Under the pieces are notes generated by a model. That model did no database searches, was not told where the DNA came from, and worked only from the letters and a program-made list of their open reading frames with translations. Both the position numbers and the translations under genes were made by a program. 64,000 bases of DNA, taken from contig NW_027117352.1 in assembly GCF_038025025.1 (NCBI RefSeq), positions 558,001 through 622,000 on the forward strand, in the 5' to 3' direction. Within the stretch, counting starts at the first letter, position 1. Each line of letters opens with the position of its first letter. Of this stretch, positions 24,180 through 32,348 are shown one piece after another. This DNA comes from Phyllosticta citribraziliensis. Lineage: Eukaryota.

Positions 24180-24801
24180 CTGTCTGTTTGTGTGTCTGGC
24201 TGGCTGGCTGGCTCTTTGTCTGGCTGTGCGCCCTTGTTTGGTGCGTGGGTGGGTGGGTGGATCCATGAATGGGTTGGGTGCGATGCTTGCCGTGCACATA
24301 TGTAGGATCTCTCTCCCTCTCCCTCTTTCTCTCTTTCTCCCAGGCAGGCAGCTGGCAGGAGACGGTCGAAGCTGCCACACATCACGTCGTTGACAGGCAG
24401 GGCGGACAGGATGGGATACGGATGGCAGCACACTGAGCAGACGGGCCGGGCCGGGATGGGATGGGATGGGATGGCGTTTCGGGTGTACTGTATCTACGTG
24501 GCTGCGTATCTAGGAAAGAGTCTATCTACATCTACATGGTTGATCTTCTGCGGATGCAGGAGGAGTGGTGAGTGGATTTGGTTTGGTTTGGTCCGAGTTG
24601 ATCTGTCGGATGGGGAGAAGTGGCAGTGGGAAGCAATGGTAGTAGAGGGTTGGGATGGATACGACTCGCCTCGCTCTCTCGCTCGCTCGCTTGCTTGCTT
24701 GCTTGACTTTGTATATGTATGTATTGACATATGTACACCCCTTTCCATCCCCCCCCCCCCCCCCCCATCCCCCTCTCTCACGCCGTTTTCCAGTCGTCAC
24801 A

Positions 24802-26175
24802 TCACCAGTACACCAGCAACCCCCTCCCCCCCTCTCCACCAACCCACCGCACGCCCAAGCGCCTCCCCATGTCCGTCGGCTGGCTAAAAGCAACCCTATC
24901 TCTCGGCACGGGCGGCGCGCCGTAGCCGTACACGAAGCAGCGGGCGGCGGCGTCGAGCAGGGCGCTGCCGACGCCGGCGCGGCGGTGGGAGGACGACGTC
25001 CAGATGCGCGAGATGCCGAGGTGTGTGGGGACTTGTGGGGAGGGGGAAGGAAGGGTGGTAGAGGCAGGGGTTGGGTGTGATAGGGGAGGAGGGATGGTCG
25101 GTTGGGATGGTATTTGGGTGGTAGTGCTGGGCTTGACGTCGTCGTCGTCATGATGGTAGTGATATTGGGCAGAGGAGATGCGTTCGGCCAGGCAGAGGCC
25201 GATGCATTTGGTCCCGCGGACGTAGAGGAACGCTTTGTAGCGGTCGGCCATGGCAGTCGTCGACGTCGTAGTGACGGGAGAAGGCTCTGGGCTTCTGGAG
25301 TCGCTGGTCGCCTTTGCATCGACACGTTCATGCGCAGTTGCACTCTCCTTCTGCCGCTCCTCCACTGCGCATGCGGACGCTGGCGCGGCAGGTTTAGCTG
25401 TTGGTATTGGCGCCGGTGCGGCCTCGACCTCTACCTGCGACCACAGCTCGGCCTCCGCAATCTCAACGGCGCCCAGCTCCGCCCGCACGACCTCCATGAC
25501 GCGCGCGACTCGATTCCTGGCCGCCGCGCCGTCTCGCCGGCTCACGACGACGACGCAATCGCCGTCCGGGCCCTCCCACACGCGCTGGGCCGCCGTCAGG
25601 CCCCGCACGAAGCCGCGCCCCAGCTCGACGCCGCCTACGTTTTGCGCGTGGAAGGCCTTGTGCAGCGCTGCGTCTTCGCTGTTGGACGGCACGTACGCCA
25701 TGCCGCATGTCGGGCACGTCTTTTGGACGGGGGCCGTGCCGAGATCCAGTTGGAGCTGTGTCAGGCGCGTTTGTTTCCTGGCCGTCCCGCTGGTTTTGCG
25801 GCGCGTGGCAACGTCATTGGCGGAGCGCGGTTGCAGTGGTGCTGCTGCGGACTTTTTTGTCGTGCTGTCGGCGGTTTTGGCATGTTTGCGGGCGAGGAAG
25901 GAAAAGACGGGGCGGCGCTTGAGGAGGATCGGGGAGGGCGAGGTCCGTGGAGGGGCGGGAGGTGACGATGGCGGTGTTGAAGATGGGAGCGCAAGCTCTG
26001 AGACTTCGTCGTAGCTTTGCGGCTGGAGCGGAGGACTGGACGGTTCGACGGGAGCGGGAGCCGCATTGTCGTTTGTGGAGGGCGCGTCGGGAGATGCAAC
26101 GCGCCGCCGCTTGGACGGTGGCTCGTATGTGGGTCGAGATGTCTTTCCCTGCCGCGAGTAGGTCTTGAGCGCCAT
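24802..26175 (-). CDS. ECO1: Cohesin N-acetyltransferase Eco1/Eso1
   Basis: QLQLDLG followed by a C2H2 finger (CPTCGMAYVPSNSEDAALHKAFH); CIGLCLAERI; LGISRIWTSSSHRRAGVGSALLD; VAFSQPTDMG. Confidence 0.92.
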   Translation of the reverse strand: MALKTYSRQGKTSRPTYEPPSKRRRVASPDAPSTNDNAAPAPVEPSSPPLQPQSYDEVSELALPSSTPPSSPPAPPRTSPSPILLKRRPVFSFLARKHAKTADSTTKKSAAAPLQPRSANDVATRRKTSGTARKQTRLTQLQLDLGTAPVQKTCPTCGMAYVPSNSEDAALHKAFHAQNVGGVELGRGFVRGLTAAQRVWEGPDGDCVVVVSRRDGAAARNRVARVMEVVRAELGAVEIAEAELWSQVEVEAAPAPIPTAKPAAPASACAVEERQKESATAHERVDAKATSDSRSPEPSPVTTTSTTAMADRYKAFLYVRGTKCIGLCLAERISSAQYHYHHDDDDVKPSTTTQIPSQPTIPPPLSHPTPASTTLPSPSPQVPTHLGISRIWTSSSHRRAGVGSALLDAAARCFVYGYGAPPVPRDRVAFSQPTDMGRRLGVRWVGGEGGRGLLVYW

Positions 26176-26252
26176 GTGTGAGCGCTCGGGGCGGATGGTG
26201 CGAGCAGATGGTGTTGAGGGTTGGAGGTGTAAGGATGAGTGAGGTGCGGAAG

Positions 26253-26281
26253 ACGCGCTCGCACGCGTTCTGGCGACGCGT
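26253..26281. promoter_or_regulatory. MCB (MluI cell-cycle box) cluster upstream of ECO1
   Basis: ACGCGT at 26263-26268 and 26276-26281 and ACGCG at 26253-26257, about 80-105 bp upstream of the ECO1 ATG. Confidence 0.65.
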
Positions 26282-26627
26282 CGACGAGCAAGGTTCCGTT
26301 GCCCTTGGTTGCTTGCTGAGTCAGCCCGTACCGACATCAACCCCCCCCCCCCGACTTGACTTGACTGTGACTGCCAAGGAAACCATCACATGCACTTCGA
26401 CATCAAGGCAAAGACGCCCTGGATGGGCTCCTTCCGTCCCAAAATGCTTTCAACCACGCAGAATGGCCTCTCACCTGTGGCAGAATCGGCACTGCCATTG
26501 GAAATACCACCTCCTGCGCCGTCCCTCACTATCAAGCCAACACTTTCCGAGCAATTCTTCAACGTGCTTCATTCAAATGCTATCGAACAGTTTCAATTAT
26601 TGCTGACCTTTGGTCTTACACGATATC

Positions 26628-29147
26628 ATGGGGTCGCCCTTCATGCAAGACTCGCCAAGCGACTTCTTGGATCCTACCGACAACCCTGACGCACAGAACG
26701 GTACTACTACGAATGCCCATGCAGCAAACGGTCATGTTGCTCCGCGCGGCAGAAATTCGCCATGGCGCCATCTTGAAGACCCTCACACTGGTTTACCAGA
26801 AAGTGGCGATTTCTTCGAGTGGATCAATCTTATAGCGTACGCCGAGTCTTTGGGCAGCTCTCCGGCAAAGGGCAATCAAAGCGCATCCGCCCGTTCTCAA
26901 GAACTCGACAATACCCTGCCCAACAGCAGCCATGCAGAAAACGTTGATGATGAGCAGTGGGACGCCTTTATGAACTTTGAATTCTCCAGTCCTACAGGGG
27001 CCGGCAATACCCCACCCCACGCCGTTGATGCAAGATACCGCTATGACTCTGTGCAGAGCAATATCGAGGAACCCGCAAGTCCTCGCGAAGGCGTTGATAT
27101 AGCAGACGGTCATGATTCTGAGCGGAGTAAAATCCTAGCAAGCGCTAATGGTCCGGCAGACAGCGATGCTCAAGCAATCATGACAGATGCAGCACGGCGG
27201 AATCTTCTGGCAGCGAAATTCGACTTTGTGGACAACTTCGACGATGCGGAATGGAGAGATTTCATGGAGGTGGCAACCGTTGATTGGTCCGAGCTTGACG
27301 AGGTTCCAGCGGATGGCAATGCTCAAACGAACGGCAATACTGAATCGAACGATCACAATCCTATGACCAACGGCGATCTTCCGACAGATGGTACTGTCCT
27401 GGCAAATGGGGACAACCTGCAACAAGACGACGAAGCTCTTGCAGAGAGGAGTCTTTCAGCAGAGTGGAACAGACTTCTGGCAGATTATGACGCTCTGGAA
27501 AACCCGCATCTTACTGGAAACGACAGCCCTCTGGGCGGTGGCAGTGTCCCAGGAAATGGGGGCGATACTGTTGTAAATGGAGACCAGGTCATGACGGATG
27601 ACATCTTTGCAGAAAACCCACATTTTTCTGTAAACAACAATCCGCTGGAAGTTGTTACTCATCCGGTAAACGGGACCAATACTATGGCAAATGGAGACCA
27701 TCTGGACGACAACAGTCCAGCACATCTGTACTTGCCTGAAACCAACAGCTTTCTGAGAGGTGGCTCTTCGGGAAACGGGGAAGATGCTGTTTTACACGGA
27801 AACTATCTCATGGCAGATGACAGCGTTCTGGCAAACCTGTACTTCCCTGAAACCGACAGCTTTCCGGGAGGTGGCACTGTTCCAGGAACCGGGGAAGATA
27901 CTTTTTTTAACGGAAACCATCTCATGGTAGACGCCAATGATCTGACAAACCTACACTTGCCTGAAACCGACAACTTTCTGGGAGGTGGCTCTCCAGGAAA
28001 CGGGGAAGATGCTGTTTTACACGGCGACCATCTTATGGCAGATGCAAACTTGACAAACGGGGTCCACCTTCAGACAGCAGATGAAAACGTTTCCGCCAAT
28101 GGCATTCTCGAAAACACCCATGTTTCAGCATACGATTTTGACGCAACGGATGGCTTTTTCAGTCCGATGAACACCCCGAGTCCGACAAACGGCACGAATG
28201 ACAATAGCCGAGTAAACGGTAGTTCTCCAGCCGTCAGTCCTCATCGAGATACCAGTCCTCATCCAGCAGAAAGTCCTGTTCCTGCCAGCAGTCTTCATCC
28301 AGCCGATAGCCCCCTTCCAGTCGGCAACTCTGACTCCACGGAAAGTCTTTTTTCGGGCGACAACACTCAGTCGGCTGACAGTCGTTACCAAAGTTATACC
28401 CCTGAGGCTGCTGTTCAAAAAAGTATAGAACAGTTGTGCGCCGAGGTCCCATTTCCAACTCCTACATATGCCGAGAGCCCAAAGTGCATCATCCGCCCGT
28501 ATCACATCCGAGACGCGACTGCACTCCAGCACCACGCCGACAATCCGCTTATAGCCAGAAACTTTTCCTACAGTTTCCCCCATCCGTACACAGACAACGA
28601 CGCCCAACGTTGGATTCTCAATCAGCCTCGGGTCATTACTCCTTTCACAGACGCCGAGATACCCCAGCTCAGAAACCATTCGGACGGATCTGTCGACGTG
28701 CTTTAGGGAAACACGCTCAACTTTGCGATTACCTCTTGCCAACAACACGAACGCAACGCGCTGCTTAGTGGGATCGGCGTCAAACCCGGGTACAACGTTA
28801 GGAACCGCAGCGCAAAGCTTTCCTTTTGGATCGCAGAGCCGTATTGGGGTCGCGGCATCGCAAAATCGGCCGTCGGCATATTCCTACGAGCGCTCTTTTC
28901 CAGGACTCTGGGTTTGAGCCGCGTCACGGCCTACACTCTGCGTCGAGAGACAGCTTCGGGCTGGCAGGGCAACTTCCCGGCTAGAAGGGTTTTGTGGAGG
29001 AATGGGTTCAAACGTGAAGGGTGCTTGATAAAGTCGGTCTTCAAGTTCGGGGAGTGGTGGGATCAGGAGGTTTGGGCCGTTTTGAGAGAGGATGTATTGC
29101 CTGAGCCGAACATGACAGGAGCCGTGTCCGGTGGTCCTGTCCACTGA
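26628..29147 (+). CDS. Long acidic Asn/Asp-rich repeat protein fused to a C-terminal RimJ/RimL-type GNAT acetyltransferase domain; one in-frame TAG at 28704-28706
   Basis: IIRPYHIRDATALQHHADNPLIARNFSYSFPHPYTDNDAQRWI precedes the TAG. The same frame continues LNFAI...GIGVKPG...AKLSFWIAEPYWGRGIA...NFPARRVLWRNGFKREG...KFGEWWD to TGA at 29145-29147. Confidence 0.75.
27501..28050 (+). repeat. Degenerate ~108-114-bp (36-38 aa) coding tandem repeat, about 5 copies
   Basis: Units begin near 27501, 27615, 27723, 27834 and 27948; consensus NL(Y/H)(L/F)PETD(S/N)F(L/P)GGGS-PGNGEDAVL(H/N)G(N/D)HLMAD. Confidence 0.85.
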
Positions 29148-29592: not shown

Positions 29593-32348
29593 ATGGCCGA
29601 CGACAGTGAGTTCCTGAATACCTCCCATGCCGTCCCCTTTTCTGACGCACACAACCAGGCATCGCAATCCCAAACACGCCCAAGTGGTGCACGCCAATGC
29701 TTGGCCCCATCGCGCAGGAGCACTTCATGGAACGGCGACTGGCCGACGCGCAACGCCGGCGCGCGACCTTCGAGGCGCAGAAGGCGCAGATCCTGTCGGC
29801 CATGGCGAAGGAGGCCAACGTCGGGCGGCAGATCAAGCTGCTGATCCACGGCCACCGCCGCCATGTCATCAGGTACAACACCGAGATCGAGTACACGCGC
29901 AACATCATCGACTTTCTCGAGCAGGCCAACGTCGACCAGTCCGTCTCGGCGTCCATTCTGGTGCAGTGGCGGAAGGATCTGTCGGATAATCTGGATATGC
30001 AGTCGGATAGGTATGCCTGCTCCAGCCTGTTTGGCGAGCTGGTTCGCGATTGGGTTCAGAAGTCGGACGACCCTGGCGAGCTGGGGTTGCAGCAGGATGT
30101 CCTCAGCCTGGAGGTTCCCGACAAGACTAAAAGCGGCATCAACGAGACGGAAGACAAGGACTTGCGTGACGAACGAAGCGTGCTGGAGAAGCTGCTGTTC
30201 ACCGCCATCCCCGTCGACAAGCCCGCCCTCTCCAATTACCTCCAACGCATCTTTGAAGGTGACGACAAGTACCAGATGGACGTCCTCCGCAAAGACGTGC
30301 GCAGATGGAGCTGCTCCATCGACTTCAGCGAGGCGACCATGGCCGAAGCTGTCAGCGGCGTCCTCCGCAGCGGCCTCTTCTCCGGCCACAAAATGGACCA
30401 GCTGTGCAGCCTGCAGGCCAGCAACGACTTTGCGCTGCAGATGCTCGACATTGTCAAGTCCGAGTACCGCAGTCTGGACGTCGTGGGCTGGGGAAAGGGG
30501 GTTCATGTGCGCCTGCGGAGGCAGCTCGACGGCCACTGCAAACTGTACATGGACGAGAATATTAGCCAGGCGTTGGTGTGGCAGTTTCTGGGGTCTAAGT
30601 TTGCGGTCGGTCTAAGAGAGGCGCTCAAGAAGCATGCGGATAGGAACTGGACCACGCCCGATGAGGCGATGCTGGATCGCGAGTCGATCGCCTTCCGCCG
30701 CGCGGATCAATTCGGGAGTGACTTTTTCCTGGGGAACCTGCCATCCAGCTCAGCGGTCGGCGCGCCGTACTACGGCGAGGATGACCTGGCTGCCGTCAAC
30801 AACGGAGGCAAGAACCTGATGCAGACCAAGCAGACGCTGCTCCGCATTCTCAATGCCGAGATGCTGCTCAACTTCAAGCTCTGCGACGAGTTCACGGTCT
30901 TGACGGTCAGCTTTGATCGGCTCAAAGCGACGCTCCCCCACGATACAGTCTTCGCTGTGCTGGAGTTCTTGAAGGTGCCGTACAAGTGGACTTCGTTCAT
31001 CAAGACGTTCCTCGAGGCGCCCCTGGTTCAGGGCGACGAGGGACCAGACGCGGAGGGACGTCCGCGACAGTGTGGTGTCCCTGAAGCTCACGGCCTGTCG
31101 GATGCTCTCTGTGAGGCTGTCTTGTACTGCCTCGATTACGCAGTCAACGTGGCGACGGGGGGGACGAATCTCTACAGGTGCCGCGACGGCGCGTGGATTT
31201 GGGGTCAAGAAAGCACCGTCGTGGAAGCGTGGAAAGCCATCCAGGAGTTTGCGTCGGTCATGGGCCTGAAGTTGGACATGGAAAGGACTGCCGCAACCAA
31301 AGTCCTGTCTCCCAGGACCAAAGGCCCTTCTCGCCTGGACCCATCACTGCCCAAGGGCCAAGTGAAATGGGGCCTGCTCGTCCTTGACGCCGCAGAAAAG
31401 CGCTGGACGATCAACGACGCCGCCGTCACCAAACACATCGAGCACGTCAGCCGCCAACTCGCCGCCTGCCGCAGCGTCCTCTCCTGGGCGCAAGTATGGA
31501 ACCAGAGCGTCGTCAACTTCTTCGGCCTGCACCTGGGCAAGCCCGAGAAGGCGCTGGGCCGCGAGCACATCACCAACGTGGTGCAGACGCTGGACCGCAT
31601 CCAGCACGCGCTGTTCGCCGCGACGGCGTCGACGTGCCTGGCGGACCACCTGCGCGCGCTCATCGCGGCGACGCTGGCCCTGCCGCCCCCCGGCGCCCGC
31701 CCCATCCCCGACGCCTTCTTCTTCTTCCCCAACGCCGTCGGCGGCCTCGAGCTGCGCAACCCCTTCATCGCGCCCTACGCCTACCGCGCCCAGCCGCCCG
31801 TCTTCAACGTCCCGTCGCTCGACGTCGCCTACGAGCAGGCCCGGGCCCAGTTCGACTGCGGCGAGCTGCTGCCGCATTTCCCAGCGCTGCAGGACCGCTC
31901 CGCCATGACGCCCGCCGATGTCGATGCTGGCTGGTCCCCGCGCCGTTGGACCTGGGGCCTCGCGCTCGACGTGCGCGACGCCGCCGCCGCGTTCGCGCTC
32001 GTCGCCGAGCGCAGCGCGGGGCCGCTCGCGCGCGCGTACAAGGAGCTCGTCGCCGACACGGCCATGGCGAGCATGCTGAGCTCGACCGAGGTGTGTCGGG
32101 CGTTGCGCGCGCTGGCCAAGGACGGCGGCAGCTCCTTGTCTTCGTCTGCTGCTGCGCGCGATTGGGGCGCGCCGGGCTTCGCGACCGAGTGGACGGCCAT
32201 GGATCCGTATTGGCGGTGGGTCGTGGCGCTGTATGCGCGCGAGGCGGTGCGGAGGTGTGGCGGGTTGCAGATGGCCGAGGGGGACCTGTTGGATATGCCC
32301 ATGATGGCGTATGTCAAGAGGGCGGAGATGGCGCGGTTGGTTGGTTGA
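29593..32348 (+). CDS. rvt: Cellular reverse-transcriptase-related (rvt-family) protein, ~900 aa, 2 exons, degenerate active site
   Basis: N-terminal coiled coil and NIIDFLEQANVDQSVS...W; RRQLDGHCKLYMDE; LPHDTVFAVLEFL; GVPEAHGLSD; LYRCRDGAWIWG; VKWGLLVLD; SVLSWAQVWN; IPDAFFFFPNAVGGLELRNPF; MDPYWRWV, all colinear with fungal rvt proteins as I recall them. A 13-nt first exon (29593-29605) and a canonical intron (29606-29658, GTGAGT...CTGAC...CAG) splice in frame into the 883-codon ORF. Confidence 0.85.

Follow-up and report, generated by a model that had tools for sequence, protein, structure and literature searches.

Genes of the rvt type encode proteins related to reverse transcriptases (RTs) and are described as single-copy genes that occur throughout eukaryotes and in a few bacteria and whose products have an N-terminal coiled coil, through which they multimerize, and an unknown C-terminal domain (PMC9226505). 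The same source equates the prokaryotic RT class UG37 with rvt elements and groups rvt with the UG/Abi RTs, reported to be protein-primed (PMC9226505); elsewhere, rvt is defined by a large "2a" insertion that separates RT motifs 2 and 3 (PMC5718144). In Neurospora crassa, the RVT protein is reported to be non-essential, to be induced upon inhibition of protein synthesis and to have terminal-transferase activity (PMC3520738); rvt genes are said to be stress-inducible (PMC11512509), and canonical rvt function is reported to require intact catalytic residues (PMC10680173). Canonical rvt proteins are accordingly described as non-templated polymerases induced by stress (PMC10680173, PMC11512509, PMC3520738), and Mn-dependent polymerization, whether non-templated or protein-primed, counts among the hallmarks of the family. 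The gene analyzed here lies on the forward strand at positions 29593 to 32348 of a 64,000-nucleotide (nt) stretch of the Phyllosticta citribraziliensis genome (contig NW_027117352.1, positions 558,001 to 622,000), which is referred to below as the window. It is an intact, spliced rvt gene depleted of catalytic aspartates (Asp), an observation made in an earlier note from the letters of the sequence and confirmed here. With somewhat better than even confidence, the gene is read as an rvt ortholog whose polymerase chemistry is gone and which has been retained to bind a partner or to serve as a scaffold.

The catalytic positions were read from an alignment of 152 proteins, namely, the P. citribraziliensis protein and 151 matches. 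The triad formed by the motif A Asp and the two Asp of motif C is complete (D-D-D) in 103 of the 152; three fragments lack motif A, and one protein has an alignment gap in motif C. The triad reads S-D-G in the P. citribraziliensis protein and in P0002 and R-D-G in P0003, the annotated Phyllosticta citricarpa ortholog, so that its loss is common to these three Phyllosticta proteins (the trio). The family consensus derived from the alignment, RRQLNGKYRVYMDE, QSDFKWFGPSLPH and LYRxHDDxWxWG, matches the motifs given in the earlier note; its coordinates for motifs A and C were exact, and its claim that two of the three catalytic Asp are lost holds, the three columns being occupied by Ser405, Asp497 and Gly498. 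In the family profile, the hDD pairs with YADD motifs of solved RTs, namely those of DRT9 (E 6.8e-7) and a group II intron maturase (E 0.0028), and columns 497 and 498 therefore represent the motif C Asp pair. Column 405 is, in the predicted structure, the motif A Asp position, as it ends a hydrophobic strand that precedes a helix, an assignment made from model topology and general knowledge of RTs rather than from a residue-level structural alignment.

The changes extend beyond the triad. Motif A was rebuilt in the trio from DFKWFGPS to SFDRLKAT or RFDKLKAN, with loss of the WF aromatics that follow the Asp, and the fingers motif carries N278D, K280H or K280Q, Y281C and R282K. Which residue stands at 405, Ser or Arg, depends on the species, as would be expected if metal is no longer bound there. 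Since the motif A Asp has given way to Ser or Arg and the second motif C Asp to Gly, and the aromatic pair is missing as well, loss of polymerization is the simplest reading, and the gene probably no longer acts by making nucleic acid.

It is also conceivable, albeit unlikely, that the protein is still a polymerase or terminal transferase in which Asp407 has taken over from position 405 as the motif A carboxylate and acts together with Asp497, the second motif C Asp being dispensable. Asp407 is invariant in the three Phyllosticta proteins, Asp497 is kept, the gene remains constrained (see below), and positions i and i+2 in a strand point to one and the same side. Furthermore, an acidic residue at +2 is present in 24 of the 40 other aligned proteins without the motif A Asp versus 18 of the 106 with it, and in all 18 of the latter it is Glu, never Asp. 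However, this enrichment comes mostly from one clade and thus reflects few independent events, and three of the four other, scattered losses of the motif A Asp (P0029, P0061 and P0150) carry Lys or Thr there. A dismantled pocket is indicated by Gly498, by the missing WF aromatics and by the Arg405 of P. citricarpa; the protein also no longer scores on Pfam RVT_1. In the relatives, column 282 of the fingers is Arg in 88 of 90 proteins with the motif A Asp but in only 1 of 33 without it; loss of the Asp is accompanied by loss of the fingers Arg and therefore resembles dismantling rather than relocation, although, unlike in these relatives, Arg282 has merely changed to Lys in Phyllosticta. More doubtful still is the broader proposal of an active nucleotidyl transferase in which the ligand migrated from Ser405 to Asp407, one motif C Asp is enough and the same solution arose independently in an older clade of Asp-less ascomycete proteins (described below). 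If true, this would be a working RT-like palm with a noncanonical two-carboxylate site.

Membership in the rvt family, as the earlier note had it, is borne out by the PADLOC profile RT_UG37, which matches the protein over amino acids (aa) 373 to 698 (E 1.3e-41, 140.5 bits) and over a second stretch, together with the equation of UG37 with rvt made in PMC9226505. The same profile matches three relatives (E 2e-63, 2.1e-75 and 1.9e-56). An exhaustive phmmer search identified 782 relatives at E ≤ 1e-3, 276 of them at E ≤ 1e-30; most are about 850 to 1000 aa long, and many align from residues 8 to 20 of the protein through residues 870 to 877. Searches with the P. citribraziliensis protein yielded no Pfam family at E ≤ 1, and so no RVT_1, no NCBIfam match and, in a sequence search of PDB, a chance match alone (E 0.36), whereas 30 of 47 aligned members give an RVT_1 match (best E 1.6e-9). 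The matches listed in a word-index homology search, run with the protein and with a 47-row profile, comprised at least the three Phyllosticta proteins. The AlphaFold2 (AF2) model of the protein, built from 112 sequences, has an RT fold with fingers, palm and thumb (mean predicted local distance difference test score 86.6; predicted template modeling score 0.88). In a VIA structure comparison, it matched the RT of R2 (Z 23.5; 489 residues aligned, root mean square deviation [rmsd] 5.2), LINE-1 ORF2p (Z 19.5), a group II intron RT (Z 18.8; 344 of 417 residues aligned, rmsd 4.0) and DRT9 (Z 16.6); Foldseek gave an E value of 2e-8, with Prp8 chains at about 2e-5. A stretch of 112 residues containing three helices separates the fingers motif from the motif A strand (398-406), and the C-terminal domain keeps the near-invariant G855 and W881, with departures at P866D and G868P.

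Compared with the described rvt/UG37 proteins (N. crassa RVT and the prokaryotic class UG37), the gene shares the UG37 profile, full-length alignment with hundreds of relatives of about 900 aa, an RT core with a long insertion between fingers and motif A, N-terminal helices, a conserved C-terminal domain, a cellular context and an intron. Conversely, it differs in lacking both the motif A Asp and the second Asp of motif C, in the remodeled motif A, the altered fingers, the missing Pfam RVT_1 signal and a branch 3.5 to 5 times longer than those of its sister taxa. Sequence, fold and architecture all mark the gene as a descendant of the rvt family, but it is classed as an rvt-derived variant and not as a canonical rvt enzyme, since the catalytic triad is incomplete. 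Among the canonical members of the family, P0004 of Lineolata rhizophorae (1441 aa) and P0156 of Lojkania enalia (1410 aa) are annotated about 500 aa longer than usual, and P0004 also contains a flavin adenine dinucleotide (FAD)-binding PCMH domain (PF01565); the extra length of the two represents either a real fusion or merged gene models.

In a FastTree phylogeny of 111 proteins of at least 700 aa, with 41 shorter ones left out, the trio nests within a canonical D-D-D clade and has a stem length of 1.36. A separate clade of 26 rows consists entirely of proteins without the motif A Asp, 17 of which keep both motif C Asp and 9 of which do not. Among the matches listed for a canonical query, the canonical relatives are proteins of Dothideomycetes and of lichen-forming fungi, and those listed include four Botryosphaeriales: Macrophomina, Aplosporella, Neofusicoccum and Diplodia. 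A quick IQ-TREE analysis (LG+C20 with posterior mean site frequencies) was run on 40 chosen rows, comprising the trio, the four Botryosphaeriales, 14 other named Dothideomycetes or Lecanoromycetes, 11 unnamed canonical proteins and 8 members of the Asp-less clade. In this tree, the trio and the four Botryosphaeriales form a clade (Shimodaira-Hasegawa-like approximate likelihood ratio test, 97), in agreement with taxonomy. Placement of the trio in the old Asp-less ascomycete clade, a grouping named after the tree had been seen, was rejected (difference in log-likelihood 78.8; approximately unbiased test, p 1.2e-14). The trio is sister to canonical Botryosphaeriales and not to the Asp-less clade, and therefore the loss in Phyllosticta is an independent event in a canonical ortholog. 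The path from the shared node to the P. citribraziliensis protein amounts to about 2.07 changes per column, versus 0.42 to 0.60 for the sisters. Of the 371 columns on which the four sisters agree, 156 are changed, with shares of 54% in the N-terminus (60 of 112), 48% in the motif A region, 22% in motif B and 43% in the C-terminal domain.

The tree bears on the idea that the protein is a non-catalytic subunit or regulator that co-assembles, via its N-terminal region, with an intact rvt paralog elsewhere in the genome. The reported multimerization of rvt through the N-terminal coiled coil (PMC9226505) and the N-terminal helices modeled here with high confidence are compatible with such a partnership. 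It is improbable all the same: the gene branches as the ortholog of canonical Botryosphaeriales rvt and not as an extra copy, no intact-triad Phyllosticta protein is present among the best 120 of the 486 relatives of the canonical protein P0005, and the N-terminal region that would have to mediate assembly is the most diverged part of the protein.

The gene consists of a 13-nt exon, a 53-nt GT..AG intron and a 2690-nt exon. The spliced coding sequence (29593-29605 plus 29659-32348) is 2703 nt long and keeps the frame through 900 codons plus the stop; it contains an open reading frame (ORF) of 883 codons (29697..32348, forward strand) that ends in TGA and whose frame is already open from 29646. 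The start ATG at 29593 stands in the context AAGAAAATGG, and a CTGAC that resembles a branch site precedes the CAG of the intron. One contig of run X1, which comes from the same organism and is taken as RNA by guess only, joins 29605 to 29659 at a depth of 78.5, beside an unspliced contig at a depth of 134; X1 is 100% identical to the window across the whole stretch. The annotated P. citricarpa ortholog P0003 likewise has 17 residues before the shared Met. The two-exon model is supported by these two independent observations, the spliced contig and the P0003 N-terminus. The intact ORF, the 13-nt exon and the canonical intron had all been called in the earlier note, which also proposed looking for reads across the 29606-29658 junction; the ORF and the open spliced frame agree with that call, and the X1 contig, with the same proviso as to its RNA nature, is spliced exactly there.

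Substitutions within the genus are distributed unevenly with respect to family conservation. Of the 753 columns that can be compared across the trio, 160 are variable, namely, 3% of 62 columns conserved at 90% or more in the family, 19% of 134 (70 to 90%), 15% of 165 (50 to 70%), 27% of 177 (30 to 50%) and 28% of 215 (below 30%), a relationship with a Mann-Whitney p of 1.2e-5. The P. citribraziliensis protein keeps the consensus residue in 52 of the 62 most conserved columns, and the ORF is open in all three Phyllosticta proteins (883, 891 and 889 aa); the G+C content at third codon positions of the gene is 84%. Run X5, from a relative (organism B), covers the gene with at least two versions, about 6% and 12 to 14% different from the window. 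In a sample of 40 of its approximately 458 differences, 34 fall within the ORF, at codon positions 1, 2 and 3 in 6, 5 and 23 cases, respectively (binomial p 6e-5). The sampled codons comprise 18 synonymous and 15 nonsynonymous changes, a ratio of nonsynonymous to synonymous changes per site (pN/pS) of about 0.26 given 23.8% synonymous sites (p 1.4e-4). The 12 listed of the 46 X5 indels mostly cancel or sum to 3 or 6 (-1/+1, total +6, -1/+1, +3 and -3). The 34 differences give part of the comparison of nonsynonymous and synonymous change suggested in the earlier note. The data are partial, yet all point to a constrained, not a drifting, gene. Because both X5 versions cover the gene, the Asp-less form is probably present in more lineages than the three known.

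The constraint is hard to reconcile with slow decay of a functionless gene whose frame stays open by chance in GC-rich DNA. The long stem branch, the global divergence, the loss of key residues and an identity of just 78% to P. citricarpa all speak for decay. Nevertheless, such decay is very improbable, considering the frame open over 883 to 891 codons in three species, the excess of third-position and synonymous changes, the avoidance of family-conserved columns by within-genus substitutions, the spliced form in X1 (again, RNA by guess only) and the fold predicted with high confidence.

In the preferred reading, a non-catalytic role, we infer both a loss of activity and a use in binding or scaffolding, whereas the analysis itself shows the homology, the fold, the residue losses, the common ancestry of these losses, the constraint and a spliced form. 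The gene represents the Phyllosticta ortholog of the canonical Botryosphaeriales rvt gene, and the motif A Asp and its second counterpart in motif C disappeared from it ahead of the divergence of the three Phyllosticta lineages sampled. The nucleotide pocket was remodeled as well (motif A from DFKWFGPS to SFDRLKAT, along with the fingers), and the whole protein diverged fast at the time of the loss. Since then, purifying selection would have maintained it as a folded and expressed RT-like protein, most likely a pseudoenzyme whose RT-like scaffold binds a nucleotide, a nucleic acid or a protein partner, the non-templated polymerization of canonical rvt proteins having been given up.

Several points weigh against this role. 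The divergence along the stem is spread over the whole protein and not focused on the active site, and the amino acid composition departs from that of the alignment, so the branch length may be inflated. Run X1 is RNA by guess only; the pN/pS estimate comes from 34 of about 458 differences in X5, where two or more diverged versions are present, and among the 12 of 46 X5 indels listed, a 1-nt deletion at 31892 has no compensating partner. As to the chemistry, the first motif C Asp, kept here as Asp497, is known as the universal metal ligand of right-hand polymerases, and some viral RNA polymerases function with GDN in motif C. The R282K change in the fingers is conservative, and Asp407, which does not vary in the trio, could reach the active site. 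On balance, the interpretation offered in the earlier note, that of a polymerase-dead rvt retained for a non-catalytic role, is partly supported as a whole.

The genomic surroundings of the gene are those of an ordinary cellular locus. No long terminal repeat (LTR)-like or other long repeats flanking the gene were found in the window, which contains one rvt-like copy, and no transposon domain was detected in a Pfam scan of 10 neighboring ORFs, two of which have matches, to an ESCO acetyltransferase and a Vps8-like RING protein. The non-mobile local context described in the earlier note thereby stands. The gene was also considered as a retrotransposon or retroviral RT and rejected as such, since neither terminal repeats nor gag, endonuclease or integrase nor multiple copies were found within the window. 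That it is a remnant of such an RT can be virtually dismissed: the RT fold is nearest to the RTs of non-LTR elements, but in addition to the missing repeats, transposon domains and further copies, the full-length rvt architecture, the match to the UG37 profile and the spliceosomal intron all contradict this origin.

Loss of the triad recurs in the rvt family, judging from the alignment, and the Phyllosticta case is less singular than the earlier note assumed: 42 of the 149 aligned proteins outside the trio carry at least one triad substitution, 26 of them in one old clade. This Asp-less ascomycete clade (P0015, P0019, P0028, P0035, P0041 and others) resembles the Phyllosticta proteins in lacking the motif A Asp, in the altered fingers, in the frequent acidic residue at +2 and in the UG37 match (P0035). 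It differs in being a separate, older lineage of longer proteins (about 960 to 1030 aa), most of which (17 of 26) retain the two motif C Asp. Further members are P0030, P0036, P0037, P0043, P0048, P0049, P0050, P0057, P0059, P0060, P0066, P0068, P0072, P0074 and others; the clade is well supported (26 of the 111 tree rows), nearly all of its proteins are without the fingers Arg, and atlas look-alikes of P0035 are mostly from Ascomycota. It may represent an old, widespread pseudo-rvt paralog. Outside this clade, scattered triad substitutions occur in P0029, P0061, P0091, P0098, P0121 and P0150 (G-D-D, D-D-E, D-E-D and V-D-E), a pattern suggesting that the active site has eroded repeatedly and independently within the rvt family.

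Two other groups of RT-like proteins invite comparison. The RT-like domain of Prp8 is similar in principle, combining an RT fold and a degenerate polymerase site with retention as a scaffold (PMC5718144); however, it has no specific sequence relationship to the Phyllosticta protein and belongs to a universal, essential and far larger protein, whereas the change described here is lineage-specific and affects an accessory gene. The UG/Abi protein-priming RTs (DRT9 and AbiK) are linked through the family profile, which aligns motifs B to D with DRT9 (E 6.8e-7), and through the VIA match to DRT9 (Z 16.6); these are bacterial defense enzymes with an intact YADD, whereas the gene here is eukaryotic and has a degenerate site.

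No mention of catalytically degenerate rvt genes and no description of the Asp-less ascomycete clade were found in the literature searched, although the primary rvt papers (Gladyshev and Arkhipova 2011; Yushenova and Arkhipova 2018) may cover them. A natural ortholog that has no complete set of catalytic residues and yet is predicted to fold, is constrained and is spliced (if X1, as guessed, is RNA) amounts to a natural mutant of rvt. Taken together with the older Asp-less clade, it suggests a second, polymerization-independent use of the rvt scaffold, and the two sets of proteins would be ready-made natural mutants with which to separate the two uses of rvt. Considering that pseudoenzymes are common, that Prp8 provides a precedent among RT folds and that triad substitutions are present in 42 of 149 relatives, the finding is moderately interesting rather than startling; the recurrent loss of catalysis in rvt is a theme worth following and at the same time lowers the surprise of the single gene.

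Features of the rvt-family gene in the P. citribraziliensis window, with the basis of each assignment
Feature	Positions	Strand	Basis
Exon 1, ATG plus 10 nt	29593..29605	+	Sequence; spliced X1 contig ends this side at 29605; spliced frame open
Intron, 53 nt, GTGAGT...CTGAC...CAG	29606..29658	+	Sequence features; joint 29605 to 29659 in one X1 contig
Exon 2 including the stop; contains the 883-codon ORF 29697-32348	29659..32348	+	ORF and splice analysis
N-terminal helical region, aa 4-123, with long helices 4-38 and 85-123	29706..30065	+	AF2 secondary structure; aligns with the family N-terminus
Fingers motif RRQLDGHCKLYM, aa 274-285; N278D, K280H, Y281C and R282K versus the family consensus	30516..30551	+	Alignment
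rvt-type "2a loop" insertion, aa 286-397	30552..30887	+	Modeled helices 289-317, 331-343 and 374-395
Degenerate motif A TVSFDRLKATLPH, aa 403-415; Ser405 (30909-30911) at the Asp column, Asp407 (30915-30917) at +2	30903..30941	+	Alignment; end of modeled strand 398-406
Motif B region, aa 455-485, largely kept: R457, G460, P462, E473 and D480	31059..31151	+	Alignment
Degenerate motif C LYRCRDGAWIWG, aa 492-503; Asp497 (31185-31187) kept, Gly498 (31188-31190) replaces the second Asp	31170..31205	+	Alignment; modeled hairpin 493-495/498-503
Helical C-terminal domain, aa 601-883, alignable with the family up to its final residues	31497..32345	+	Alignment; AF2

Among the neighbors, the ORF at 24805-26385 on the reverse strand combines an ESCO1/2-type acetyltransferase domain (E 9.5e-21) with an ESCO zinc finger (E 9.9e-14), and its product is a homolog of cohesin acetyltransferase, an ordinary cellular neighbor. 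Just downstream of this ORF, at 24736-24776, a run of about 20 C lies in a C-rich tract. The ORF at 26628-28706 on the forward strand, upstream of the rvt-family gene, encodes 692 aa without a Pfam match; at 27498-28044, a unit of about 110 nt is repeated in tandem, in three to four diverged copies spaced by 114 or 219 nt and 65 to 83% identical, which encode a repeated peptide rich in Gly, Asn and Asp.

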